Assembly (NCBI GenBank): GCA_963665735.1
Contig: OY762444.1
Coordinates: forward strand, 3,334,673-3,398,672
DNA length: 64,000 nucleotides
Direction of reading: 5' to 3'
Origin: Dehalococcoidia bacterium
GTDB taxonomy: Bacteria; Chloroflexota; Dehalococcoidia; Lucifugimonadales; UBA3495
Shown here: positions 1,526 through 38,017 of the stretch, piece after piece
Numbering within the stretch: position 1 is the stretch's first letter
How the letters are laid out: every line of letters starts with the position of its first letter
Position numbers and translations under genes: made by a program
Notes under the pieces: generated by a model
What the model saw: the letters and a program-made list of their open reading frames with translations, nothing else
Databases searched by the model: none
Told to the model about the DNA's origin: nothing

Positions 1526-2506
1526 TCAAAGGGGTCGGCCGGCCTCCTCGGGAGAGACCGGGGAAAGCAGGGATTCAACAAAGTCCTGCGGGTCAAAGGG
1601 GGCCAGGTCACTGAGGGATTCTCCGGTGCCGATGAACATTATCGGCACTTCCAACTCCTGCTTGATGGACAGGGCGATTCCGCCGCGGGCGGTTCCGTCC
1701 AGCTTGGCGAGGAAAATGCCGGTGCAGTCCACCGCCTCTTTGAAGGATTGGGCTTGGGCCAGCCCGTTATGGCCGGTGGTGGCGTCCAGAGTCAGCAGCA
1801 CCTGGTGGGGCGCCGTTGGGTCCAGGCGGTTGATGACCCGGCGGACTTTCTTCAACTCTTCCATCAGGTTGGCCTTGTTGTGGAGCCGGCCCGCCGTGTC
1901 CACAATCAACACATCCGCTTGCCTCGCCTTGGCCGCCTGGTAAGCGTCGAAGGCCACCGCGCCGGGGTCGGCCCCGGAGCCGTGCCGGATAATGTCCACG
2001 CCAACCCGCCCGGCCAGAATCTCCAACTGTTCCTCGGCGGCGGCGCGGAAGGTGTCCGCCGCTCCCAAGACTACTTTATGCCCGGCGTTCTTGAAGTGGT
2101 AGGCCAGCTTGGCGATGCTGGTGGTCTTGCCCACGCCGTTGACGCCCACCATCAACACCACGTAGGGTTTGGCGGTTTCGTCGTCGTCCAGCCACAACGA
2201 TTCGTCACCGTCGCCGGCCAATTCCGCGGCCAGCGACTCTTTCAGCAAGTCAAACACCTGCTCCGGTTCGCTGACCCGGTTGTCCCTGACCTCCGCCTTC
2301 AACCGTTCCACGATTTGCAGGGAAGTTTCCACCCCCACGTCGGCGGAAATAAGAATTTCCTCGATTTCTTCCCAAAGGTCGTCATCCAACTCGGACGAGC
2401 GGAGCAGCCCGAAGATTTTGCCGAACCAGCGTTCCCGGCTGCGCTTGACCCCTTCGTCGGTCTGGCGTTTGTTTTCGGTGCGGTCGCGTTTGAAGATGCT
2501 GAACAT
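1526..2506 (-). CDS. ftsY: Signal recognition particle receptor FtsY
   Basis: 326 aa with an acidic N-domain followed by an SRP GTPase domain: GVNGVGKTTSIAKLA, DTAGR, LAKLDGTARGG. Confidence 0.95.
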   Translation of the reverse strand: MFSIFKRDRTENKRQTDEGVKRSRERWFGKIFGLLRSSELDDDLWEEIEEILISADVGVETSLQIVERLKAEVRDNRVSEPEQVFDLLKESLAAELAGDGDESLWLDDDETAKPYVVLMVGVNGVGKTTSIAKLAYHFKNAGHKVVLGAADTFRAAAEEQLEILAGRVGVDIIRHGSGADPGAVAFDAYQAAKARQADVLIVDTAGRLHNKANLMEELKKVRRVINRLDPTAPHQVLLTLDATTGHNGLAQAQSFKEAVDCTGIFLAKLDGTARGGIALSIKQELEVPIMFIGTGESLSDLAPFDPQDFVESLLSPVSPEEAGRPL

Positions 2507-2542: not shown

Positions 2543-3253
2543 CTAATTGGTGGTTTCCGATGTCTCCGGGGCGGAGCGGGTCATTGCGTCGGCGGCTGCG
2601 GCCCGCTCGGCGTCGGCTTTTTTGCCGCCCTGCCCCCGGCCAACCACCACGTCGGCGACCAGGGCTTCGACGGTAAAGACCGGGTTGTGGTCCGGGCCGG
2701 ACTTGTCCACCACCCGGTAGCTGGGGGCCGGCTTGCCCTGGGCTTGCAGGTATTCCTGGAATCGGGATTTGGGGTCTTTGGGCGGCACGCCGGAAAGACA
2801 GGATTGTTCCAGAGCGTTGCCCAAGGTATTTTTGACCAGGGTTCGGGCTTGGTCATAACCCTGGTCCAGGTAGGTCGCCGCGGTCAAAGCCTCAAAGGCC
2901 GCCGCCAGTATGGAATCCCGGTTTCTCCCGCCGGAAGTTTCCTCACCCTTGCCCAGCAACAGGTGTCGGCCCAGTTCCAGCCCCCGCGCCGCTTGGGACA
3001 GGCTTTCCCGGCAGACCAGGGCGGCCCGGATTTTGGTAAGTTCCCCCTCGTCCAGGTGAGGCAAGCGGTGGTAGAGTTCGGTGGACACCACCAACTCCAG
3101 TACCGAGTCCCCCAGGAACTCCAGCCTTTCGTAAGACTCCGGGGATGCCCCGCCCTGTTCGTTGAGGAAAGAACGGTGAATCAGGGCTTGCCGGAGCAAG
3201 CCCTGATTGCGAAAGCGAAACCCGATGGTTGATTCCAGGTCGCTGCCGGACAA
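2543..3253 (-). CDS. rnc: Ribonuclease III
   Basis: Contains the RNase III signature ERLEFLGDSVLELVV and a C-terminal dsRBD (PKDPKSRFQEYLQAQG...FTVEALV). The long ORF to 3532 overlaps the upstream gene. I place the start at TTG 3253, which is 4 nt after a GAGG. Confidence 0.88.
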   Translation of the reverse strand: MSGSDLESTIGFRFRNQGLLRQALIHRSFLNEQGGASPESYERLEFLGDSVLELVVSTELYHRLPHLDEGELTKIRAALVCRESLSQAARGLELGRHLLLGKGEETSGGRNRDSILAAAFEALTAATYLDQGYDQARTLVKNTLGNALEQSCLSGVPPKDPKSRFQEYLQAQGKPAPSYRVVDKSGPDHNPVFTVEALVADVVVGRGQGGKKADAERAAAADAMTRSAPETSETTN

Positions 3254-3260
3254 GGAGCCT

Positions 3261-3893
3261 CTAAATGACCCCGTGGGGCCAGGGCGGTTGGGGCCGCTTG
3301 ACTTCGCCGACGTGGGGCAGCGTGGAAACCATCGTCGTAAGGTTGTCGTAGATGGCGGCGGCCTCTTCGTCCGGGGGAATGAACATCTTGATGAAGGCCG
3401 AACCGCCGCCGGGGAAGACGTAGGTGGGAACGCCGAAGGCCCCGTACTCTTCCACCGCCTTGGTGTGGCTTTCCCCGATGTCCTGGAGCAACTGGGGGTC
3501 GGCCAGGTCTTCGTAGAACTGGCCCAGGTCAATGCCGGCGTCGGTGGCCGCGTCCTTGATTACCTGGGGGTCGGCCAGGTCTTTCTTTTCCTCGTGGCGG
3601 GCCTTGAGCAAGCTCATAAAGAAGGATTCGAAGGCGTCCCTGCCCTGCCGCTTAGCGGCCAGACCGGCCTGGTGGGCCAGCAGGGTGGTATCCGAGCCGT
3701 CCAGGATACCGGGCTGCTCCCAGACCTTCCAGTCGTCGCCCTCTTTGCTGTTGATTTGGGCCAGCGAGAAGGGCTGCCAGTCCACTTCAATATCCTGGCC
3801 GGTGGTTTCCCTGACTTTCGACAGCCACACGGCTGCGTTGTAAACGAAGGGTCAACGAAAGTCGTAATAGGTGGTGAAGTTCGCCTCTGTCAT
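3261..3893 (-). CDS. DsbA-like (Rv2466c/mycoredoxin-2-like) thiol oxidoreductase with an in-frame TGA at 3852-3854; candidate selenoprotein (or N-terminally disrupted gene)
   Basis: The track ORF 3261..3830 lacks the thioredoxin-fold active site. Upstream and in frame lies GGAGG, then 7 nt, then ATG 3893, encoding MTEANFTTYYDFR-TGA-PFVYNAAVWLSKV. The TGA aligns with the first Cys of the family's D-x-x-C-P-W-C motif. Confidence 0.6.
3822..3835 (-). other. Short hairpin CAGCC-GUGU-GGCUG starting 17 nt 3' of the in-frame UGA (possible SECIS apical stem)
   Basis: The plus strand reads cagcc acac ggctg. An outer UUCG/CGAA pairing is also possible. This was judged by eye only, with no folding energy computed. 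Confidence 0.25.
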
Positions 3894-3936
3894 ACTGCGC
3901 CTCCTGCCGTTTGGTTGGCCGTTCCTGACTGTCTGA

Positions 3937-3965
3937 ATTGTAGCACACCCCCGGCGCAAGGCCAA
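3937..3965 (-). promoter_or_regulatory. Sigma70-like promoter TTGGCC-17 nt-TACAAT upstream of the DsbA-like gene
   Basis: Minus-strand sequence is TTGGCCttgcgccgggggtgtgcTACAAT. It lies about 45 nt upstream of ATG 3893. Confidence 0.4.
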
Positions 3966-4018
3966 TAAGGGCGTGGCCGTTGGCCCGGGTCATCCAATCC
4001 TCCCGACCCTGCCAAACG

Positions 4019-4573
4019 CTAGCCGCTTTGCCTTTGTCGCTGGAACAGTCCGTGAACCCTGCTCACTGCCGGGCTGCCCAACCTTTCCAGCACCAACTGA
4101 CAGATTCGCAGGCCGGGGGACAGCTTACATTCGTAAGGGCCGTTGTTCAGGATTTCCAGACGCAACTGCCCTTCAAAGGTGGCATGAACCGTTGGAGCGG
4201 TTTGGTGAATGGATATGCCCAACCTGGCGAATGAACTTCTCCCTTCTACTCGTCCCGAAAGATAATTGGGTAGCTTGATGTATTCCCTGGTATATGCCAG
4301 GACGAACTGGCGGGGCGCGAGGTCGAAGTTGTCCCCTTCTTCAAGCGTCGTTTCAATCCCAAAGGCATTGGCGATTTCCTCCACGTCCCCCACTTTCGCC
4401 AAGTCTATGGTAGTTGAGACGCCTGGGATGTCGAGGGTGTTGAATGTCGTGAATTTGTTGCTGAGCCGCAGGTCAACGGAAGAAGGGGTGACTTGTTCCC
4501 CATCTATTTCGGGAGTGAATGACAGCCTCCCACTTCGTATCTCCATCCAGATTTCGTGGTCGCTAAGTACCAT
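4019..4573 (-). CDS. dcd: dCTP deaminase (dUTPase fold)
   Basis: 184 aa reading MVLSDHEIWMEI...SVDLRLSNKF...GRSSFARLGISIH...LEILN, which is the typical Dcd layout. It lies in a lower-GC patch. Confidence 0.88.
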   Translation of the reverse strand: MVLSDHEIWMEIRSGRLSFTPEIDGEQVTPSSVDLRLSNKFTTFNTLDIPGVSTTIDLAKVGDVEEIANAFGIETTLEEGDNFDLAPRQFVLAYTREYIKLPNYLSGRVEGRSSFARLGISIHQTAPTVHATFEGQLRLEILNNGPYECKLSPGLRICQLVLERLGSPAVSRVHGLFQRQRQSG

Positions 4574-18958: not shown

Positions 18959-19978
18959 TTAGTTGACCAAGGCGCAGACGGCGTAAACCGTCAGGGTCCA
19001 ATTGCCTGTCCCGGCTCCTATCCGAGAGGCGCTGGCCATCCACGAACCAGGCACCTGGCCGGTTACGCCCACAGGCCGCGATTCCACGATAGCAACGCCG
19101 GCGGAGTCACCGGCCAGGGACGCGCCCCCGGAAATGGCGGCGTGGTCGGCGCTGGCTCCGGCACATTCCGCGCTAACCGTCGCGGTAGTAGCGCTGGGGC
19201 TGCTGGTCACGGTCAGGATTTGCAGTTCGGATACGCCCGGTTCACCCTGGATACCCTGGGGGCCGTGGGGGCCCTGGTCGCCCTTGGGGCCGGGAGCGCC
19301 GCGCAGTCCGGCGGGGCCTTGCGGGCCTTGCGCTCCGGCGGGGCCTTGCGCTCCGGGCGGGCCGGCGGGGCCTTGCTCCCCGGCGCCGGCATCTCCCTTA
19401 ACGCCTTGGGGGCCTTCGGGACCCTGGGGGCCTTGCGGGCCGGCGGGGCCTTGCGGACCGAGGGGGCCGGTGTCGCCCTTGGCGCCCTGGTCACCGATGG
19501 GGCCCTGGGGGCCTACCGGGCCCTGGGGGCCTTGCGGGCCGGGAGGGCCGCCGGGGGTTCCGTCCACTCCGGGTTCGCCCTGTTCACCCTGGGGGCCGGT
19601 GTCGCCTTTTTCACCCGGTTCGCCCTGGGGGCCGCGCTCACCGCGGGGGCCTTGGTCACCGATAGGGCCTTCCGGGCCTCGGGGGCCGCCGGCGGGACCG
19701 GGGTCGCCCTTTTCGCCCCGGGGGCCTTGCGCTCCTCTGGCGCCGTCAGCGCCATTGGCCCCGTCTTGCCCGTCAGCGCCGGCCGGGCCAGCCGGGCCTT
19801 GGGGGCCGGCTGCGCCTTGCGGCCCGGTCGGACCCGTCGGGCCAGTCGGTCCTGCTGCCCCAGGCAATCCCTGCGCTCCGGTGCACGCCGTGGCCACCAG
19901 TATCAAAGCGACGGCGAGGGCCACGGCACCCATCCACTTTTTCATAACCACATCTACCCAATCAGAAGCGAAGTTCAT
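18959..19978 (-). CDS. Collagen-like (Gly-X-Y) triple-helix repeat lipoprotein with a ~95-aa non-collagen C-terminal domain
   Basis: 339 aa with a signal peptide and lipobox (LILVATAC), then about 75 GXY triplets ([25 protein letters not shown]...), then [12 protein letters not shown]...[19 protein letters not shown] lies 8 nt before the ATG. Confidence 0.85.
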
Positions 19979-27972: not shown

Positions 27973-30009
27973 CTAGGCCCGGCCCGGTTCGGAAAACCCG
28001 CCGCCCGGCGATTCAACAGTTTGTGCGCCGGCGTCTCTGGCCCGCGCCGGCCTGGTTGCCGGCGATGGAACCGACAGGGACGGTTGCGGCCACAAAGCCA
28101 CCAGCGTTCCCAGAATCAGCACCGGCCCGGCGGCCCACATCCACCAGGTCATCGGGTTGACCAGGATGCGGAAACCCACCGCACCGTTGGACAGGTTTTC
28201 GCTGGGAACCACGTAGAAGTCCTCCACCGGCGTGGAACGAATGGCGGCGCGGGTAGAGGCCATGTCGAAGGAAGGATAGAAGGCCCGCTCGGCAGTCATG
28301 GTTTCCAGGAACTGCCCATCCCGGTACAGCCGCACCACCGAATCAAACTCGGTGCGGTCGGGGAACTGGGTCGCTACTGTGCCGACGTATTCCAGCCGGT
28401 AGTTGCGGACTTCCACGCTTTCGCCGGGGGACAGCACCACGTCGCGCTGCACGTTGAAAAATGACGTTCCCAGCACCCCCAAAGCAACCATCACCACCGC
28501 CAGGTGGACCACGTAACCGCCGTAACGGGGCCGGTTGGCCGCTATCAAACGGAACAGCGCCACCGGGTAAATCTCCCCCACGCTCCGCCGGCGCGACAGC
28601 ATCCCCCGCCACCATTCCAGGAAGATTCCCGCCGCCACCATAGCGCACAGCCCGAAACCCAGCAGCGGATAGGGCTGGCGCATTCCCACGGCCAGCAGCA
28701 GCGCAATCACCACCCCGGCGGCGACGGACGGCCATAACAAGGCGCGGCGCAGGGATGACCAAGTTGCCTGGCGCCAAGGGAGCAGCGGCCCGACGCCCAT
28801 CAGGAACACCAGGGCCAGCATCAGCGGCCCGTTCACCTGGTCATAGAAGGGCCGGGCTACGGTAATTTCCTGCCCCGACGCCGCGCGGGAAAGCAGCGGA
28901 TAGACCGTCCCCCACAGGGTAACGAAAGCCACCCCCAGCAGCAGCAGGTTGTTGACCAGGAAGGCCGCCTCCCGCGACAGCATGGAATCCAGGTTTTGCG
29001 CGCTCCGCAACAGGTTGAACCGCCAGAAAAAGACGGCGAAAGGCACGATGGTTCCCACCGCCAAGAACAGCAGGAACACCCAGCCCAGCGTTGACGCTCC
29101 GAAGGAATGTACCGACGGCACCGGCCCGCCCCGGTTCATAAACATCCCGTACAGGGCCAGCGAAAAGGCTGCGTTAATCAGCACGATGTTCCACATTCGG
29201 AACATTCCCCGCCGTTTCTGCACCATGATGGAATGGACGAAGGCGGTCAGGGCGAGCCAAGGCATAAAAGCGGCGTTTTCCACCGGATCCCAGAACCAGA
29301 ACCCGCCCCAGCCCAAAATGGTGTAGGCCCACCAGGAACCCAGCAGCAGACCCGCCGCCAGCAAGACCCAGGTGATGATTCCCCAGACCCGCCCGGTGTC
29401 CACCCATTGGTCCCGGGTTTGGCCGGCCAGGATTGCGCCCAAGGCGAAGGCGAAGGGTATGGTTATGCCGATAAGTCCGGCCATCAACGCCGGCGGATGG
29501 AAGAACATCCCGAAATGCGTCAGCAGCGGGTTAATCCCCTGCCCGTCCGGGGGAACGATGGACAGCTTGGCGAAGGGGTTGGCCATGAAGGCCATGACTG
29601 CCAGAAAGAAGGTCTGCACCAGCATCATGGCGGCGGCGGTGTAGGGCAGGCTTGGCCCCAGCCGGGCCGGGGCGCGCCACAGGGCAATCGCCGCCATGAC
29701 CGACAGCACAAAGGCGATATACAACAATGAGCCTTCGTTGCCGGAATAAAACGCTACCCAGGTGAATATGTCCGGCATGGCCCGGTTGCTGTGGGCGGCG
29801 ACGTAGGCCAGATCAAAGTCCCGGTTGATGAAAGCCGCCACCAGGCTGAGGGTGGCGACCAGCAGAACTACCGGCAGCAGGTAAACCGCCCGGCGGGCGC
29901 TGACCACCAGTTGCGGGCTGTCCCGCAGCCGCCCCGCCACCGAGCCGAGGCAGGCGTAGGTGGACAGGGCCAAGCCAATCCAGAGCGTAACCGCTCCCAA
30001 GTCGCCCAT
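27973..30009 (-). CDS. ccmF: Cytochrome c-type biogenesis heme lyase CcmF
   Basis: 678 aa and polytopic, with the WWD motif LGWGGFWFWDPVENAAFMPWL. Confidence 0.92.
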   Translation of the reverse strand: MGDLGAVTLWIGLALSTYACLGSVAGRLRDSPQLVVSARRAVYLLPVVLLVATLSLVAAFINRDFDLAYVAAHSNRAMPDIFTWVAFYSGNEGSLLYIAFVLSVMAAIALWRAPARLGPSLPYTAAAMMLVQTFFLAVMAFMANPFAKLSIVPPDGQGINPLLTHFGMFFHPPALMAGLIGITIPFAFALGAILAGQTRDQWVDTGRVWGIITWVLLAAGLLLGSWWAYTILGWGGFWFWDPVENAAFMPWLALTAFVHSIMVQKRRGMFRMWNIVLINAAFSLALYGMFMNRGGPVPSVHSFGASTLGWVFLLFLAVGTIVPFAVFFWRFNLLRSAQNLDSMLSREAAFLVNNLLLLGVAFVTLWGTVYPLLSRAASGQEITVARPFYDQVNGPLMLALVFLMGVGPLLPWRQATWSSLRRALLWPSVAAGVVIALLLAVGMRQPYPLLGFGLCAMVAAGIFLEWWRGMLSRRRSVGEIYPVALFRLIAANRPRYGGYVVHLAVVMVALGVLGTSFFNVQRDVVLSPGESVEVRNYRLEYVGTVATQFPDRTEFDSVVRLYRDGQFLETMTAERAFYPSFDMASTRAAIRSTPVEDFYVVPSENLSNGAVGFRILVNPMTWWMWAAGPVLILGTLVALWPQPSLSVPSPATRPARARDAGAQTVESPGGGFSEPGRA

Positions 30010-30011
30010 GA

Positions 30012-30740
30012 CTACGATTCCGTCGGGGGTTGGCGGTTCGTTTCCCGGGGCGGGCCGGACTCCCCGGCAAACGGCCCGGAAGCGCCGGAAATCTGCCGGT
30101 CAGCCATTTCCAGGTAGGGGTGCAACGACGGGTCTGCGTTGCCAACAGAGTCAACCGACGGCAAAGAATCCGGCCCCGAATCGGTCAATCCGTCAACCGA
30201 TGTCTGGCTCGAAGAACGGGTCATCGCCCGCAAAGCCAGCAGCCCCGCGGCCAACGCGACCAAGACGCCAACCACCGGAACGCCCCACGCCAGCAGGTTG
30301 AAACCCGACTTGGGCGGCGCGGCTATCACCGCCTGGCCGTACCGCTCCGCAAAAAAGTCCAGGATTTCCTGGCGGGTTTCGCCGGCGGCCAGCTTATCCC
30401 GCACTATCTGGCGCATCTGCTTTGCCAGCGGCACCTGCGCCTGGTCTATCGTCTCGGCGGGGCAAACCGGACACATCAGCATCCCGTCAATGGCCTGCGC
30501 CTCCGCCTCATCGTAACTTCCGGTTGCGTCAGCCGGCGCTACAACCCCCGACGGCGGGTCTGCGGCGTTAGCGGCAGTCTGCCCGCAGGCCAGCCCTCCA
30601 ACCATCAACAAGACGCCAAACGACAAGAAAAGAGCAAACAATCTCCCCGCTCTCTGCGTCTCCGTGGTGAAACAACCCGTTGACCCAGAGCCACGGAAAG
30701 AGCGGGAGATACGCCGAGGGGTTTTTGTTGCAGCAGCCAC
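30012..30740 (-). CDS. ccmH: Cytochrome c-type biogenesis protein CcmH
   Basis: Contains LMCPVCPAETIDQAQVPLAKQMRQIVRDKLAAGETRQEILDFFAERYG followed by a TM helix. Confidence 0.8.
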   Translation of the reverse strand: MAAATKTPRRISRSFRGSGSTGCFTTETQRAGRLFALFLSFGVLLMVGGLACGQTAANAADPPSGVVAPADATGSYDEAEAQAIDGMLMCPVCPAETIDQAQVPLAKQMRQIVRDKLAAGETRQEILDFFAERYGQAVIAAPPKSGFNLLAWGVPVVGVLVALAAGLLALRAMTRSSSQTSVDGLTDSGPDSLPSVDSVGNADPSLHPYLEMADRQISGASGPFAGESGPPRETNRQPPTES

Positions 30741-30761
30741 GTTGCCCCGCCGGGGATACGG

Positions 30762-31361
30762 CTAGGGACAGGCTGACGGGTCCGCCCCTTGGAGACAGTT
30801 AACCACGTACTCGGAGGCGACGCGCATCTCGTCTTCGGTCAGCAGCTTGGAAAAGCTGGGCATTACCACCAACCCGCCGGCCACCAGGTTTTGTATCCCG
30901 TCCACGCCCAACTCAACCACCACCGGGTCGGTCAGGTCGGCCGGCAGCGCCGGGGTATAGCCGTAATCGTCAATCATCCGTTGCAGCACCGGGCCGTCTC
31001 CCCGTCCAGCGACGCCGTGACACATGGCACAGTTAACGTCAAAAAGGTTCTGCCCCACGTGGGCAACGCCGGCCGTGGATTGAGGCGGCGGATACCACGC
31101 TACGGCGGTGTCCGGCACGCTCAGCCGGGGCGGTTCATGCGCCTTGTACGACTGCTGGTAGTGCATTTCGTAAAAGATGTCCAGCGGATACGCGCCCTGG
31201 GCGCACCCCACGGTCAGCAGCAGCGCGAACAGCAGGGCCAAGCCCAGCAGTCCCCGGCGGAACGGGAACCGACTGGCTGGCGACGATTCAATTTTGGGAA
31301 AGACTTTTTTCATCATGTCAAAGACGGTTGTTGCGGTTTCACCTGGCGGGAATGCGGGCAT
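30762..31361 (-). CDS. actE: Monoheme cytochrome c, ActE-like subunit of Alternative Complex III (start may be ATG 31316)
   Basis: Has a lipobox (LLTVGC), a single CAMCHG heme site and a distal Met region. Confidence 0.75.
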   Translation of the reverse strand: MPAFPPGETATTVFDMMKKVFPKIESSPASRFPFRRGLLGLALLFALLLTVGCAQGAYPLDIFYEMHYQQSYKAHEPPRLSVPDTAVAWYPPPQSTAGVAHVGQNLFDVNCAMCHGVAGRGDGPVLQRMIDDYGYTPALPADLTDPVVVELGVDGIQNLVAGGLVVMPSFSKLLTEDEMRVASEYVVNCLQGADPSACP

Positions 31362-31366
31362 GGGCG

Positions 31367-31882
31367 TCAGGCCGGGCTTTCCCGCTTGATGTCCACCGCC
31401 CCGGCTTGGTTCAGCACGTTGGCAACCTGGTCGTGTTCGGATTCTTCCGCCTGCACCAGCACCCCGATATGGCCGTCGGTGATGCGGGTATCGTACAGCC
31501 CCATCTTGAACTTGGGCAGCCGCGACTCGAAGATTATCCCCAGCACCGTGAACAGGATGGCCCCCAGCATCGTCCCTTCATAGCTGACCACCGCCATCGG
31601 GGGCAGGGACAGAATCGGCTTGCCACCCGTCACCAACGGGTAGGCCACCTGGGTCATGGAAGTCAGCAGGACGCCCGAAGTCAGCCCCAGCAGTCCCCCG
31701 ATGAAGGGGAACAGGTACAGCCGGTGTTTCTCTTCCCGCTCCCCGAAAGCCCCTTCGGGATAGGGAGCGTCGGTCAGGAAATCGAAGTCCGTTTCCTCAA
31801 CGCCGGATGACCGGAGTCCGTCGCCGGCGTCGGCTGCGGCGTTGGGGTCGGTGAACAGTCCCAGAATCGGGCGTTTAGCCAT
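31367..31882 (-). CDS. actD: DUF3341 protein, ActD-like subunit of Alternative Complex III
   Basis: Starts MAKRPILGLFTDPNAAADAGDGLRSSG... and has TM helices in the middle. Position is immediately after the ActC-like gene. Confidence 0.75.
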   Translation of the reverse strand: MAKRPILGLFTDPNAAADAGDGLRSSGVEETDFDFLTDAPYPEGAFGEREEKHRLYLFPFIGGLLGLTSGVLLTSMTQVAYPLVTGGKPILSLPPMAVVSYEGTMLGAILFTVLGIIFESRLPKFKMGLYDTRITDGHIGVLVQAEESEHDQVANVLNQAGAVDIKRESPA

Positions 31883-31907
31883 GACTTACCTCGGTCAACG
31901 ATTAGGT

Positions 31908-33323
31908 CTAATCTTCCCGGAAGGTGGCGGGAACGGTGCGCCGCCCCACCTGCACTTCCGTGCGGAGGAACTCGCCCTCCTTGATGTCATATAACGGCAC
32001 TAACGGGAACACCCGGCTGAACAGCAGCATCAACATGGTCACGAAGGCAAAAGTGGCCCCCACAATCAGCGCCTCGGCCGGCGAAGGAACGTAACTGGCC
32101 CAAGTGAAACTGAACAGGCTCCGGTTAGCCAGCCCCGGCACGATGATTATATACCGTTCCAGCCACATCCCGATATTCACCGATATACAGGCCGCCGACA
32201 TAATCCACAAATTGCGCCGGGCCCAGCGGGTCAGCCACAGGGCCACCGGGATAAAGTAGGTAGTCACCACGAAAACAATTGTCCAGCCGCTCATCGGCCA
32301 CTGGTAGAACTGGAAATCCCGGACGGCGATTTCGTCGGCCTCCCGCCCGTAAATCCCGAAAATAACTTCCATCACGAAGAAGTAGAACCAGCCAGTCGCC
32401 ACCACCACCAGCAGCCGGCCCAGGGCGTCAATGTGTTCGTGGCGGATGTAGTCCTGCCAGCCGTAGATGTGCCGCAGGATAATCATTACGAAGGCCACGG
32501 CGGAGACGCCGGAGTGCACCGCGCCCACCACGAAGTAGGGGGCGAAGATGGTCGAGTGCCACGACTTGACCGCCACCGCCATGCCGAAGTCCCAGGACAC
32601 GATGGAATGTACCGACACGAACACCGGCAGAATCAGCGCCGACAGCAGCACCCCGGCGATGATTTGCAGCTTCCACTGCCGGGGGTTGCCCTCCCAGCCC
32701 AAGGCCAGGAAGCGATAGGCGGCGTGGAAAATCTGGTCAGTGGACGACGGGTGCTCGCTGTTCGCCACCTTGTCGGCGTAGCGGTCGCGCAGCACGGCGA
32801 AGTCGGGAACCAGCGCAATCAGCACAAACAACGTGCTGGAAGTCAGGTAGGTCAGAATGGCCGACGGGTCCCAGACCAGCGGGGTGCGGATGTTCGGCCA
32901 GATGCCCCGCGCAAAGTCGTAGGGGAAGGCCCAATACAGGATGCGCCACGGCCGGCCCGTATGGATGATGGGCATAATCATGGCCGTCATCAGGGAAAAG
33001 ATGGTCAAGACCTCGGCGGCGCGAGTGGCAGGGCGGCGCCATTCCGCCTTGGCCAGCCGCAGAATGGCCGACAGCATCACCCCGGCGTGGGAAATGCCAA
33101 TCCAGAACACGAAGTTGGTGATAAAGAACCCCCAGACGATAGGGCGGTTCAATCCGGTAATGCCCAGGCCCCGGTCAATCATAATGCCGATGGTGATGGC
33201 GGCGGCCAGCACGATGGTAGCCAGAAAGCCGACCACGGGCCAGAACCACCGGGGCGTCTCCATGATGGAGTTGAGCAAGTCCCGGTTTATTTCGGTGGGA
33301 GTTAGGGCTCTACCTTCCTGCAT
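31908..33323 (-). CDS. actC: NrfD/PsrC-like polytopic quinol-interacting subunit, best fit ActC
   Basis: 471 aa containing GLNRPIVWGFFITNFVFWIGISHAGVMLSAILRLAKAEWRRPATRAAEVLTIF...PIIHTGRPW, which matches my recollection of the ActC N-terminal region. Confidence 0.8.
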   Translation of the reverse strand: MQEGRALTPTEINRDLLNSIMETPRWFWPVVGFLATIVLAAAITIGIMIDRGLGITGLNRPIVWGFFITNFVFWIGISHAGVMLSAILRLAKAEWRRPATRAAEVLTIFSLMTAMIMPIIHTGRPWRILYWAFPYDFARGIWPNIRTPLVWDPSAILTYLTSSTLFVLIALVPDFAVLRDRYADKVANSEHPSSTDQIFHAAYRFLALGWEGNPRQWKLQIIAGVLLSALILPVFVSVHSIVSWDFGMAVAVKSWHSTIFAPYFVVGAVHSGVSAVAFVMIILRHIYGWQDYIRHEHIDALGRLLVVVATGWFYFFVMEVIFGIYGREADEIAVRDFQFYQWPMSGWTIVFVVTTYFIPVALWLTRWARRNLWIMSAACISVNIGMWLERYIIIVPGLANRSLFSFTWASYVPSPAEALIVGATFAFVTMLMLLFSRVFPLVPLYDIKEGEFLRTEVQVGRRTVPATFRED

Positions 33324-33392
33324 CGCAGGCGACCCCCGTAAAAATCCGCGTTGGCGGGAATGATAGCCGCATTGTTGGATTGCCCATTAGAT

Positions 33393-34817
33393 TCATTCCG
33401 GCTTGGCCAGCACCAGGTACTCGCCCCGGAACAGCGGGCGTTTGTCCTGGTACATGGCCCCTTCCTTGACTTCCCACACCGAAATGAGGGGGAACAGCCT
33501 GGCCGCGGCCAGGAACACCAGGGCCGCCATGCCGACGCCGCCCACCACCATGAAAACGTCCCACAAGTCCGGGAACACCGGCGGCGGAACGCTGGTCATG
33601 CCCAGGGCGTAAATGTCCCCGGCGTTGAAGGCGGCGACGAACATCCGCAGTTGGAACAGCAGGTTGCCGCAAAGGATGGACAACCCGGCCAGCGTCGGCC
33701 CCCAGTCCGACTTGCGGAGCGGATTCCAGATAAGCATGAAGAAGGGCAGGAAGAAAATCAGGATGACGTTGGCCCAGAAAATCCCGGTATAGGACTCGAA
33801 AATCAGGTATCTAATGAGGTTCTGCTCGGTTTCCAGCCGCCCGTACCACATGGTTATGAAAAAGGCGAACAGGTGGTACGTCCACAGCAGGGTCAGGCCC
33901 AACTGCACCTTGCTGGCCGACCAGAAGGGCGACAAGCCGATGTAATTGGAGTAGCCGCCCCGCCGGCGCAGGATGAAAGCGATAATCAGCGTCAGGGATA
34001 TGGCCGACTGGAACCCGGTCACGGTGTAAAGCGGCGGCAGAATCGAGTCCTTCCAGCCGGGAATGAGCGACATAGCGAAGTCGGAAACGATGAGGAACTG
34101 GACGAAAATCAGCATCATAAAGTACAGCCCGCCCAGGTAAGCCAGGCTGACCTTCTGCCGGTGCCACTGCCGCTTGGTGCCGTACCAGTGGCCGGCCAGT
34201 TTCCGGTACAGCGCGCCGCGGAATCCCGTCGCCGTGTGCCGGGCCTCGGCCATGTCGGGCAGCGCCGACAGCCACAGCAGGGCCAAGGCCGCCACCGCCA
34301 GGCACACAATCCCCAGGAAATTCCACAAATGCGGCGCGCCAAATGGCACTTCCATCCAGATGGAACGGCGGATGACCAATTCCCCGTGGGAATCCGGGCC
34401 GAAGTTGGGGTTGCTGATGGGCGGCAGGATGTAAATTAACGGAATATAAAGGATGACGTTGAGGACGCCGCACAGGGCGAAAAGTTCGGCGATGCGGGAA
34501 ACCGGACGACGCCAGTGGTTCTTGGTAATGCGGAAGGCGACGGCGAACAGGGGCGCAGAGCTGGTTACCAGGAAAATGAAGGAAAAGACGGCGACGTAGT
34601 AGCCCCAGGCCGAGTAGTTGCCGAAGCCGTCCGTCACCCAGCGCATGACGAAACCGACCACCGCCAGCACGGCCAGCGCCTCCGCCGCCAGAGTGACCAA
34701 CCGCAAGGCGCGGGAACTGGACTGAGCCTTTTCGGCCACGTCCCGGGTGACCTGCCCCTTGTCGGGCAGCACCCACATATCGGCGGGGTAATGGGCCGGT
34801 TCAGAGTGGCTAGACAT
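33393..34817 (-). CDS. actF: Second NrfD-like polytopic membrane subunit (ActF-like)
   Basis: 474 aa with about 10 TM segments. It overlaps the FeS subunit gene by 8 nt. Confidence 0.7.
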   Translation of the reverse strand: MSSHSEPAHYPADMWVLPDKGQVTRDVAEKAQSSSRALRLVTLAAEALAVLAVVGFVMRWVTDGFGNYSAWGYYVAVFSFIFLVTSSAPLFAVAFRITKNHWRRPVSRIAELFALCGVLNVILYIPLIYILPPISNPNFGPDSHGELVIRRSIWMEVPFGAPHLWNFLGIVCLAVAALALLWLSALPDMAEARHTATGFRGALYRKLAGHWYGTKRQWHRQKVSLAYLGGLYFMMLIFVQFLIVSDFAMSLIPGWKDSILPPLYTVTGFQSAISLTLIIAFILRRRGGYSNYIGLSPFWSASKVQLGLTLLWTYHLFAFFITMWYGRLETEQNLIRYLIFESYTGIFWANVILIFFLPFFMLIWNPLRKSDWGPTLAGLSILCGNLLFQLRMFVAAFNAGDIYALGMTSVPPPVFPDLWDVFMVVGGVGMAALVFLAAARLFPLISVWEVKEGAMYQDKRPLFRGEYLVLAKPE

Positions 34818-35598
34818 TGGTATTCTTTTCCAGCGGGAATTGGTCTATCTGCTTCAGGTAGATAATGCTGGGGCGGGTCGCGCCCTCTTCCATCAGGCGG
34901 TAGCCGCGGGTTTCCCGTTCATATTCGTGGTGAATATCGTGGGTATTCACGTCGTCAAAGTAGGGACGAATATGGGAGTTGGCGTCGTTCTGGTCGCCGA
35001 AAGTCAGGGCGTTGGTGGGGCAAGCCTGCACGCAAGCCGGAGCGTAGTTGCCCTCCAGCAGTTTCTGGTCGTCAAGGCGTTGGCCCCCGGCCCGTTCCAC
35101 CTGAAGTTCCCCGCGCCGGAGTCGCTGGACGCAGAAGGTGCATTTTTCGGTGATGCCCCGGGTGCGCACGGTAACGTCCGGGTTTAGCTGGTTCTCCATG
35201 CGGTCCGGCCAGTGGGGATGCCAGAAGTTGAAGAACCGGGCCTGGTAAGGGCAGTTGTTGATGCAGTAGCGGGTGCCGACGCAGCGGTTATACACCTGGA
35301 CGTTGAGGCCCTGGTCGTTGTGGTAGGTGGCGTAAACCGGGCAAACAGGCTCACAGGGGGCGTTTTCGCAGTGCTGGCAGAGGACGGGGATAAAGCGGGC
35401 TTTGACGTTGGGGTATTGGCCTTGCCAGTAGCGTTCGATGCGGATCCAGGAGTAGGTACGGCGTTGGAGGAAGAGGTCTTTGGTGTTGATGGGGAGGTTG
35501 TTTTCGGCCTGGCAAGCGACGACGCAACCGTTGCAGCCGGTGCAGCGGTCCAAGTCAACGACCATGCCCCATTTGTGGTCTATGCGGTTAGTAACCAT
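34810..35598 (-). CDS. actB: 4Fe-4S ferredoxin-type iron-sulfur subunit (ActB2 module encoded separately)
   Basis: Cys clusters are CTGCNGCVVACQAENN, CQHCENAPCEPVCP, CVGTRYCINNCP, CTFC and CVQACP. Confidence 0.85.
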   Translation of the reverse strand: MVTNRIDHKWGMVVDLDRCTGCNGCVVACQAENNLPINTKDLFLQRRTYSWIRIERYWQGQYPNVKARFIPVLCQHCENAPCEPVCPVYATYHNDQGLNVQVYNRCVGTRYCINNCPYQARFFNFWHPHWPDRMENQLNPDVTVRTRGITEKCTFCVQRLRRGELQVERAGGQRLDDQKLLEGNYAPACVQACPTNALTFGDQNDANSHIRPYFDDVNTHDIHHEYERETRGYRLMEEGATRPSIIYLKQIDQFPLEKNTNV

Positions 35599-35704
35599 AT
35601 ATTCCTACCTGGAACTCCGTTTAGCGCCTTTGGTAAATCGTCCTCTATCTTAATTGGAAGGTGAAAAGCGGCCTGGAACTGACCACCGGCCCACCAACCA
35701 CTAT

Positions 35705-38017
35705 TTAATGGCTGCCATTGGGCGAAACGGTCTTGATAACTTCTTCGCCGGGGTTGTTGTCAATCTGGTTGCCGACTTCGCGGTTGGTAAAGGTTCCCTC
35801 GAACTTGGCGACGCGGACGCTTTGGCCGGTGGCGGAAACCTGTACCCGGTTGGCGGCCCAGGCCAGGGCGCCGGTGTTGGCCACTTGTTGAGTGGGGAGG
35901 ATGGACAGGATATTGGAACTGTCGCGCCAGTCGCCGGTCTGGAAAGTATCGTTGCCGTGGAGGCGGCCCTGGCCCAGGGGAACGGCCACCACGTCGGGGG
36001 GCATACCCGGGTTGGGGTAAACCGGGGCGTGAATGGATCCGGCGGCGGATGAAACCTGGACCACATCGCCCTCCCGCAGTCCCTCGGACTTCATGCGCGA
36101 CTCGTTCATCTCCACCCAGGTCTGCCAGGCGATGGTGGTCAGGGGATCGGGGACGCCCTGGAGCCAAGGGAGATGGGAATTGCGCCCGTCCAGCAGGGTG
36201 TTGTGGGCGAAGGGAACGAGATAATAGCCGTCGCCGGAGTAGGACGGGGCGGCGGCCTTGGCGGCGATTTCGTTGTAAAGCCCGTTGCGAGGCGAAGGCC
36301 GGGGGCCGGATTGGGACTCGTCCCACCAGCCGCCCTGCCGGAGCAGGTTGTTCCAGAACTCGGCGGCGTCGGCGCCGGAAACGGAACCGCGATTCATGGC
36401 GAAAAGGGCGTCGGAGGACTCGCGCAAAGCGTCTTGCAGGGAAGGCCAGGGCAAGTCCCGGTCACGGCCGGCTTCCTGCCCCACGGCCAGCAGCAGGTCG
36501 CTGAAACTGCGGGGGTCGAGGTCGCTCAGGGGGTTGACCACCGGCTGCTGGAACCCCAGCACGGCATAGCCGGGGCCGGGGTCGGGAATGTCGCTGCCCC
36601 AATCTTCCAGGTAATTGCGGTCGGGCAACACCAGGTCGGCCATGACGGTGGTATGGTCCATGAAAGAAGAGAAACTGACGGTGAAAATATCGTCGCGGTT
36701 CAGGGCCTCCCGCAGGCCGAAGGGAGGCAGCCCGTAAACCGGGTCGGCGTTATGCACCATGACCACGCGGGTCTGGCCGGAGTTGATGCGGTTGACGGCG
36801 GAACTCCAGTCGGCAACCGTGGCGACGCTGGCCTTGGCGGGAAGGTCGGGCAGCGGGCTATCGGGATTGAATCGCAGACCGCCGGCGGCGCCCACGCTGC
36901 CCACCAGGTAGTTGAGGGCGTAGATGGCTTCCAGGTTGAACAGGCCGTTGGAATGGGCCGCCGCAGTGTCGCCGCCCAAAGCGATGGCCGGCGTATGGCC
37001 GGCGAAGTCCCGGGCCAATTGGCGGATGTAATCGGCGGCGGAGTGTCCGCCCAGCATCCCGGCGGGAAGGTTGAGCATCGGCCCCACCTGTTCGGCGGAG
37101 AAAGCGGCCAGGGCATCGGCACCCCGCCCGCCGGTAAGGGCGTCCACGTCGGCGGCAGGGGCTTGCAGGTTTTCGGCGATGATGGTGTGGGCCAGGGCCA
37201 GGGCCAGATAGCCTTCCAGTCCCGGCGGGATGGGCAGCCACTTGTCAGCGTTGGCGGCAGTGAGGGAAAAGCGGGGGTCAACGTGGACGTGAGTGCCGCG
37301 GGTTGAACGTCCCGGCCCCTGCCGGAAGTCGCCGTAGGCCCGGGACCAACGGGTAGGGGAGGCCCAGGTAGAAAGGAAGTCGGCCCCGAAGGACAGGAGG
37401 TAGTTGGCGTTGGCGATATCGAAGTCGGGCAGCAGTTCCTGGCCAAAGACGTTGTTGACGGCGGCCCGGTAGGTGGCTTGGTCGAGAGCCTCAAAACCCA
37501 GGTGGTGGCCGTTAAAAGCGGAGGCGAACTTGGAGGCGATAAGGCCGGGGTGGGCGCGCAACGGCTCGGTAATCAGCAGGAGGCCGTCGCCGCGGGTCAA
37601 GAGTTCGGCGGACAGGGCATCCAGGCCCCGCTGCCAGGTGGTAGGGGTGAAGGAATTGGCGGAACCGCGGGGGCCGGTGCGAACCATCGGGCCGGGGATG
37701 CGGTCGGGGTGGTAGAGGGCTTGAAGTCCGGCGTCGCACCGGGCGGACTGCTTGCCCATATTGACCGGGTACATGGGGTTGCCCTGCACCTTCTTCGCGC
37801 GGCCTTCCATGACCCGGACGAGGACGCCCTCGCTGGTGGGACAGCACCGGCAAAGGGTGGCGTACCAGTTATCCCGGCCCTTGACCAGGTCTTCCGGCTG
37901 CTGGGGGGGACTTTGGAGGCGCAACTCTTGCCGGTCTTCGCCGAAGATGTTGCAGCCCACCGCTCCCACTGCGGAGAGGCCGGCCCAAGCCAGGAAATTG
38001 CGCCGAGTCAGTTTCAT
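35705..38017 (-). CDS. actB: Molybdopterin-oxidoreductase-like large subunit with a Tat signal (ActB1 module)
   Basis: 770 aa starting MKLTRRNFLAWAGLSAVGAVG (twin-Arg signal), with a complex iron-sulfur molybdoenzyme family fold pattern. No in-frame stop. Confidence 0.8.
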   Translation of the reverse strand: MKLTRRNFLAWAGLSAVGAVGCNIFGEDRQELRLQSPPQQPEDLVKGRDNWYATLCRCCPTSEGVLVRVMEGRAKKVQGNPMYPVNMGKQSARCDAGLQALYHPDRIPGPMVRTGPRGSANSFTPTTWQRGLDALSAELLTRGDGLLLITEPLRAHPGLIASKFASAFNGHHLGFEALDQATYRAAVNNVFGQELLPDFDIANANYLLSFGADFLSTWASPTRWSRAYGDFRQGPGRSTRGTHVHVDPRFSLTAANADKWLPIPPGLEGYLALALAHTIIAENLQAPAADVDALTGGRGADALAAFSAEQVGPMLNLPAGMLGGHSAADYIRQLARDFAGHTPAIALGGDTAAAHSNGLFNLEAIYALNYLVGSVGAAGGLRFNPDSPLPDLPAKASVATVADWSSAVNRINSGQTRVVMVHNADPVYGLPPFGLREALNRDDIFTVSFSSFMDHTTVMADLVLPDRNYLEDWGSDIPDPGPGYAVLGFQQPVVNPLSDLDPRSFSDLLLAVGQEAGRDRDLPWPSLQDALRESSDALFAMNRGSVSGADAAEFWNNLLRQGGWWDESQSGPRPSPRNGLYNEIAAKAAAPSYSGDGYYLVPFAHNTLLDGRNSHLPWLQGVPDPLTTIAWQTWVEMNESRMKSEGLREGDVVQVSSAAGSIHAPVYPNPGMPPDVVAVPLGQGRLHGNDTFQTGDWRDSSNILSILPTQQVANTGALAWAANRVQVSATGQSVRVAKFEGTFTNREVGNQIDNNPGEEVIKTVSPNGSH

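Follow-up and report, generated by a model that had tools for sequence, protein, structure and literature searches.

What does an in-frame TGA, met only 13 codons into a DsbA-like gene, encode? The question arises at 3261-3893 on the minus strand of a 64-kb stretch of contig OY762444.1 from a Dehalococcoidia bacterium (64,000 nt, referred to throughout as the window; features are listed in Table 1). The frame opens at an ATG (3893-3891) with the peptide MTEANFTTYYDFR, meets TGA at 3854-3852, and then reads on as PFVYNAAVWLSKV... (also written PFVYNAAVWLSKVRETTGQDIEVDWQPFSLAQIN...) as far as a TAG at 3263-3261; the residues flanking position 14 are ...TTYYDFR-U-PFVYNAAVWLSK. An initial annotation of this DNA had given the ATG, the peptide, the TGA and the continued frame to 3261 at these coordinates, with the promoter-like pair TTGGCC-17-TACAAT at 3965-3937, and all of these were located where it placed them; its 7-nt spacer between the Shine-Dalgarno (SD) sequence and the ATG is a trivial slip for 6 nt. 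It had also remarked that the track of open reading frames (ORFs) covers only the part after GTG 3830, and the mechanical ORF list indeed gives 3261-3830 alone for this gene.

Comparison of related sequences indicates that the UGA at 3854-3852 is very probably a selenocysteine (Sec) codon in a cytoplasmic DsbA-fold protein, read by means of a Sec insertion sequence (SECIS). In the proposed decoding, the UGA would be read as Sec because of the hairpin that follows it, and this hairpin would act as a bacterial SECIS (bSECIS) element recruiting SelB with Sec-tRNA(Sec). TGA ends 11 of the 45 large ORFs in the window, and the genetic code is therefore standard.

The TGA column among relatives

A protein search returned 525 relatives, and 94 related genes, from independent assemblies, were recovered from a DNA set of 80 metagenome contigs and 14 species-level genomes, each of these a metagenome-assembled genome of Dehalococcoidia, SAR202 or Chloroflexota. 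When we aligned the orthologues over the Sec column, as the initial annotation had proposed, the codon was TGA in 91 of the 94 genes, TGC in two and TGT in one; TGT or TGC also occupied this column in three further Cys forms. The TGA-bearing relatives encode proteins 45-90% identical to the window protein, the TGA being kept down to 45%. Two tandem paralogues on a SAR202-related contig (L014, 7595-8230 and 8554-9180), both ~45% identical to the window protein, each carry the in-frame TGA and the same hairpin. The motif D-x-x-U-P is found in all 91 Sec forms, as D-F-R-U-P here and as D-Y-A-U-P or D-Y-S-U-P in the 45%-identical clade. Full-length homologues, also of 210 aa, have Cys at the TGA column and read ...FYDFRCPFVYNA..., with the pattern ...F(T/A)I(F/Y)YDFRCPFVYNA... 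and without a second Cys.

The stretch ahead of the TGA carries a coding signature: among 76 distinct Sec-form sequences, third-position entropy at codons -8 to -2 greatly exceeded that of first and second positions. An SD-like motif lies no more than 18 nt upstream of codon -13 in all Sec-form loci (81/81), and codon -13 itself is ATG, GTG or TTG in 78 of the 81. The upstream YYDFxC-type segment, through which the TGA had originally been aligned with Cys, is conserved in orthologues, and the 13 codons, the start and the SD sequence are kept. The Arg codon on the 5' side of the UGA, which lies outside the hairpin, is CGT in each of 73 distinct Sec forms (73/73); this invariance may reflect a codon-context requirement for UGA recoding. 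The central proposal of the initial annotation, that the TGA falls on the nucleophilic Cys of a DsbA-fold oxidoreductase, is strongly supported by the Cys/Sec pairing, the upstream coding signal, and the hairpin constraint and covariation described below.

A SECIS-type hairpin and the decoding of the UGA

The hairpin CAGCC-GUGU-GGCUG, noticed earlier as a 5-bp element, is present and extends to 7 bp (5+2) with one bulged U. Numbered from the U of the UGA, positions 18-24 (CGCAGCC) pair with 29-33 and 35-36, U34 is bulged, and positions 25-28 form the loop; GTG 3830, the start in the ORF list, supplies the first three bases of this loop. Published bSECIS criteria specify a loop of 3-9 nt, a stem of 4-16 bp, a G in the first two loop positions, a spacing of 16-37 nt and a minimum free energy of -7.5 kcal/mol or below. 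The window hairpin agrees with each of these, with its GUGU loop, 5+2 bp stem, loop beginning 21 nt past the UGA and energy of -9.9 kcal/mol.

We found the hairpin to be constrained at the level of both synonymous sites and pairing. Within it, one codon prevails at each of three sites: GCC for Ala +7 (76/76 sequences), GTG for Val +8 (59/60) and CTG for Leu +10 (75/76). All synonyms are in use at the neighbouring Pro, Phe, Val, Tyr, Asn and Ala codons, as they are at Leu +30. Pairing holds in 93% of helix cells over 67 distinct sequences, and sliding the 3' partner by one or two columns either way gave 18-45%. At pair 18-36, 38 sequences have C-G, 20 have U-A and one has U-G. The stem occurs in two registers of 7 bp each, GCA...CUG UCG with U34 bulged and GCC...CUG GCA with U32 bulged, and these combine crosswise with the pair types: U-A goes with the first register in locus L028, and C-G with the second in L006 and L027. 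The covariation therefore arose more than once. Cys forms read GCY ACY AUG UGG CUG GAG over the same region (GCC GCA ACG GUA in L015) with variable third positions; they lack the stem of the Sec forms, and the hairpin that is left to them instead is weaker (-4.7 to -7.0 kcal/mol). Judging from the encoded residues, the hairpin constrains the protein itself, which has AA(V/M)WL in Sec forms versus ATMWL in most Cys forms.

Several results weigh against decoding of the UGA as Sec. Searches of the 64-kb window and of 551 kb of related loci recovered none of selA, selB, selD and tRNA-Sec: Rfam models, applied to the entire window at gathering thresholds, gave no match, so no tRNA-Sec; ARAGORN reported no tRNA-Sec in the window and 14 genome loci; and tblastn of E. 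coli SelA, SelB and SelD (approximate queries) against the window and 96 loci (the 551 kb) matched only EF-Tu, next to a tRNA cluster in L005. Folded as a single 67-nt sequence, the region is no more stable than its shuffles (z = -0.05), and the significance of the hairpin therefore rests on the comparative evidence, in which much of the covariation may come from few evolutionary events. In about 20 of the 67 relatives the loop is AUGU, which does not satisfy the wording of the loop-G rule. The selenium is deduced from sequences and not at the protein level, the catalytic mechanism and substrate are purely what we infer, and the closest characterised structure, DR2335 (see below), has no reported function.

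Scanning the window for ORFs extended through one TGA yielded no second convincing candidate, the output of a Sec/Cys-pair scan of the 551 kb was swamped by conserved shadow ORFs of GC-rich genomes, and nothing relevant turned up in the literature on SAR202 and selenocysteine. Dehalogenimonas, which belongs to the same class (Dehalococcoidia), has five selenoproteins, and Sec is also used elsewhere in Chloroflexi; since Sec use is documented in the class, Sec decoding is plausible here, without this being proof.

The alternative that survives best is that a near-cognate or suppressor tRNA inserts Trp, Cys or Gly at the UGA, or that a system resembling SelB and tRNA-Sec delivers Cys there. The failure to find Sec machinery would suit it, as would the C that follows the UGA, a leaky stop context, and one public gene call of 210 aa (P0005) has Trp at the Sec column. 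The DNA of P0005, however, reads TGA, its W being the gene caller's choice of code, and table 11 fails to give the query; moreover, the codon occupies the catalytic Cys position, where no residue other than Cys or Sec would function, the hairpin fits the bSECIS model, TGA serves as a normal stop in other ORFs of the window, and the family has been classed as a selenoprotein by specialists (PMC2398784). We regard decoding as another amino acid, or as Cys, as very unlikely.

Initiation at GTG 3830 or its equivalent, which would give a DsbA-fold protein of 189-194 aa devoid of a redox centre, is very unlikely. GTG is a legal start codon, and public records do carry proteins of 189, 190, 191 or 194 aa as 'DsbA family protein' or 'hypothetical protein'; but GTG 3830 lacks an SD sequence and sits in a conserved hairpin loop, the called starts vary among orthologues (residue 17, 20 or 22) as a gene-calling artefact would, and strand beta1 and the alpha1 N-cap would be missing from the product. 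The conservation of the 13 upstream codons, SD sequence and start codon, with their coding signature, likewise argues against a downstream start. The chance of a nonsense-disrupted pseudogene, or of a sequencing or assembly error, is negligible: a lone in-frame stop 13 codons in does look like a nonsense mutation, and gene callers treat the TGA as one, but the same TGA recurs in 91 independent assemblies at 45-90% protein identity and in both L014 paralogues, purifying selection acts on both of its flanks, and the start codon and SD sequence are conserved.

With Sec as the preferred reading of the UGA, the public annotation of this gene would need revision. Most of the relatives found are 189-194 aa long and start with MYNAAVWL or MWL..., that is, they are gene calls restarting just past the Sec column. 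Public SAR202 and Chloroflexota records would thus hold a truncated gene stripped of its active site, the actual product being a predicted selenoprotein of 210 aa.

Family membership, fold and proposed chemistry

The family itself has been described before. The Global Ocean Sampling (GOS) study lists 'DsbA 3, pfam01323, UxxV' in its Table 2 with five selenoprotein sequences from three samples and 72 Cys homologues (Zhang & Gladyshev 2008, PMC2398784), and an example under '#DsbA 3 UXXV' in its Dataset S1 contains ...NFSIYFDFRUPFVYN... (PMC2398784). The window protein is 56% identical over 200 residues to the DsbA 3 entry JCVI_READ_1592875 (E 3e-84), and the two share PF01323, the same Sec position, U-P-F-V within ...YFDFRUPFVYN.AVWL... 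and a marine origin. With PF01323, U-x-x-V and similarity to listed members all present, the window gene is a member of the DsbA 3 (UxxV) family, whose Sec reading is already published as a computational prediction. The 2008 listing names no organism, whereas relatives here map to SAR202/Dehalococcoidia genomes; likewise, DsbA 3 was listed with 5 Sec versus 72 Cys sequences, whereas the close relatives here comprise 91 Sec versus 3 Cys.

Other DsbA-like selenoproteins offer partial parallels. A 2026 catalogue of prokaryotic selenoproteins includes 'DsbA-like protein form 2' with the motif DxxUP (example MDP6049977.1; PMC13188914); PF01323 and D-x-x-U-P are also present here, and by motif and domain the two may be one family. 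The window protein has no crotonase domain, and the name 'crotonase' is absent from the hit list of its relatives. DsbA-like selenoproteins with UxxC (form 1, or DsbA 1) have been known since the Sargasso Sea study and were also found in GOS. Like the window gene, DsbA 1 combines a DsbA fold with Sec as the first residue of the redox motif and a bacterial SECIS after it; it differs in keeping the resolving Cys and is a separate subfamily.

We next consider the fold. The U-to-C product matched Pfam DSBA (PF01323) with an E value of 4e-19 and 69.5 bits, and an NCBIfam scan of the same protein matched no family. A natural Cys form that shares 70% identity with the window protein was modelled with AlphaFold (AF2; pLDDT 89.7, pTM 0.87) and has a strand at residues 6-10, then D-F-R-C, then a helix at 15-31. 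Strand beta1 begins at residue 6, too early for a signal peptide to precede it. All thioredoxin-fold enzymes carry their attacking Cys at the N-terminus of helix alpha1; on this model, residue 14 is the N-cap nucleophile of helix alpha1 in a thioredoxin fold, and the conserved G-V-P-T (154-157) is the cis-Pro loop.

Among solved structures, the best match is DR2335 (DR_2335) of Deinococcus radiodurans (PDB 7DK9; C24S mutant 7DKA), with a sequence E value of 1e-18 and a fold TM of 0.78 at 29% identity. DR2335 shares the motif F-D-F-x-C-P-[FY] with a single Cys, no resolving Cys and no signal peptide; it differs in carrying Cys rather than Sec and in insertions in its helical domain. The window family shows the features of a DR2335-type protein: a single Cys at the alpha1 N-cap, D-x-x-C-P-[FYW], a DsbA fold and no signal peptide. 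YjbH, Rv2466c, GST kappa and HCCA isomerase are more distant than DR2335, and classical DsbAs are further still; the signal peptide and CPHC-type CxxC of a classical periplasmic DsbA are absent from the window protein, and Foldseek E values to that group are only ~1e-4.

The initial annotation had assigned the protein the layout of the Rv2466c (mycoredoxin-2) family, which holds in part. Rv2466c of M. tuberculosis (PDB 4NXI, 4ZIL) resembles the window protein in length, cytoplasmic location and DsbA fold (TM 0.65-0.69), and the Rv2466c-like Pfam family PF22234 is matched above its threshold (36.5 bits versus a cutoff of 27, E 7e-9), although more weakly than DSBA. However, Rv2466c is only a distant relative (~20% identity, E 1e-5), DR2335 being much closer. 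Rv2466c uses a CPWC dithiol and is mycothiol-dependent, whereas the window protein has U-P-F-V with a single redox residue; we therefore rejected Rv2466c/mycoredoxin-2 proper as an identification, CPWC being absent. As a separate observation, the Dataset S1 entry that precedes '#DsbA 3 UXXV' (MRIDFWVDPIUPWCW...; PMC2398784) is a Sec form of an Rv2466c/mycoredoxin-2-like protein with U-P-W-C, and the Rv2466c-like family therefore also has selenoprotein members.

An exhaustive search of cluster representatives retrieved 612 at E <= 1e-3 and 33 at E <= 1e-30, a small family. The full-length members examined read D-x-x-C-P-[FYW]-[VAS] with one Cys, apart from one exception with C-P-C. As these alignments indicate, the single redox residue is ancestral, and the whole family characteristically lacks a second Cys. 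The initial annotation had put forward a replacement of the resolving Cys by Val that accompanied the arrival of Sec; this we rejected, Cys-form orthologues also reading C-P-F-V. Several clades at less than 50% identity look N-terminally truncated, which suggests that they may be further Sec forms.

Because neither the Sec nor the Cys forms have a resolving Cys, the enzyme would operate by a mono-selenol mechanism. Sec14 would lie at the N-terminus of helix alpha1, facing the cis-Pro loop G-V-P-T, and its selenolate would be the nucleophile towards a disulfide, an S-thiolated protein or an oxidant, giving an Se-S or Se-OH intermediate, which an external thiol would then resolve. Three distant Cys forms (P0160, P0179 and P0230; 32-41% identical to the Cys-form query P0006) have an N-terminal P-loop domain of ~210 aa (GVTGNIACGKS...) resembling dephospho-CoA kinase; such a fusion may hint at a CoA-related thiol partner.

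Genomic neighbourhood and other features of the window

The coordinates of the gene, its signals and its neighbours are collected in Table 1. Within 3100-4300, the promoter-like pair is the sole sigma-70-like match, compared with an average of 0.3 in the shuffled region.

Table 1 Features at and around the candidate DsbA-like selenoprotein gene (positions in the window).
Feature	Position	Strand	Details
Full coding sequence, candidate DsbA-like selenoprotein	3261..3893	-	210 codons; Sec = codon 14; stop TAG 3263-3261
Promoter-like pair TTGGCC (-35), 17-nt spacer, TACAAT (-10, TG before it)	3937..3965	-	consensus match only
Shine-Dalgarno GGAGG	3900..3904	-	6-nt spacer to ATG
In-frame UGA, read as U14	3852..3854	-	motif D-F-R-U-P-F-V; Cys column of homologues
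Arg codon abutting the UGA on its 5' side	3855..3857	-	CGT throughout Sec forms
SECIS-type hairpin	3819..3837	-	5' arm CGCAGCC 3837-3831; loop GUGU 3830-3827; 3' arm GGCUG 3826-3822; bulged U 3821; CG 3820-3819
rnc (RNase III)	2543..3253	-	Ribonucleas_3_3 E 2e-38 + dsrm; nearest in-frame start TTG 3253, start uncertain
ftsY (SRP receptor)	1526..2506	-	SRP54 domain E 7e-76; next gene, same direction

The rnc gene is probably co-transcribed with the DsbA-like gene, and in 83 of 86 loci the latter is followed by an RNase III gene. In locus L015, the neighbourhood of the Cys form P0024 has the order of the window, namely PolyA_pol, DsbA-like, RNase III, FtsY and DUF2298, and the Sec and Cys forms are therefore orthologous. 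Sec and Cys orthologues at one locus constitute a clean natural experiment, of possible use for asking how coding sequence is shaped by a SECIS and what favours Sec in a mono-thiol DsbA fold. On another Cys-form contig (L098, 1049-1441), the gene after the DsbA-like gene is not RNase III but an OsmC-family (peroxiredoxin-like) gene.

Beyond the family as listed in 2008, the present analysis places it in SAR202/Dehalococcoidia, shows that Sec is nearly fixed relative to Cys in close relatives and that the gene keeps its place upstream of rnc and ftsY, quantifies the SECIS constraint and brings out the mis-annotation in public records; the gene also provides one more marker of Sec use in a lineage that is abundant in the deep ocean. 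The finding is mainly one of annotation and opens no new class of system. Two further readings would go beyond the 2008 listing if true: that Sec has nearly replaced Cys in a housekeeping mono-selenol DsbA-like enzyme of the rnc-ftsY locus (for example, a selenol-based reductase or peroxidase for a class of substrates outside the range of known thioredoxin-fold enzymes), or that decoding is non-canonical and SelB-like. Taken together, we consider these unlikely.

Elsewhere in the window, ARAGORN reported an 88-nt tRNA-Pro (CGG) of odd length and anticodon position at 18969-19056 on the minus strand; Rfam gave no tRNA there at gathering thresholds or at E values up to 1, and the call is probably a false positive. 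Two adjacent minus-strand ORFs at 19213-19755 encode Pro/Ala/Lys-rich low-complexity repeats (...KAPxAPK...) with GC3 of 0.92-0.93. Further along, a same-strand gene run with large membrane proteins (27973-38017, minus strand) encodes a 770-aa protein whose N-terminus (MKLTRRNFLAWAGLSAVG) is twin-arginine-like and a Cys-rich ferredoxin-like protein (CTGCNGCVVACQ); by its encoded proteins, this run looks like a cluster of the molybdopterin-oxidoreductase or alternative-complex-III type.

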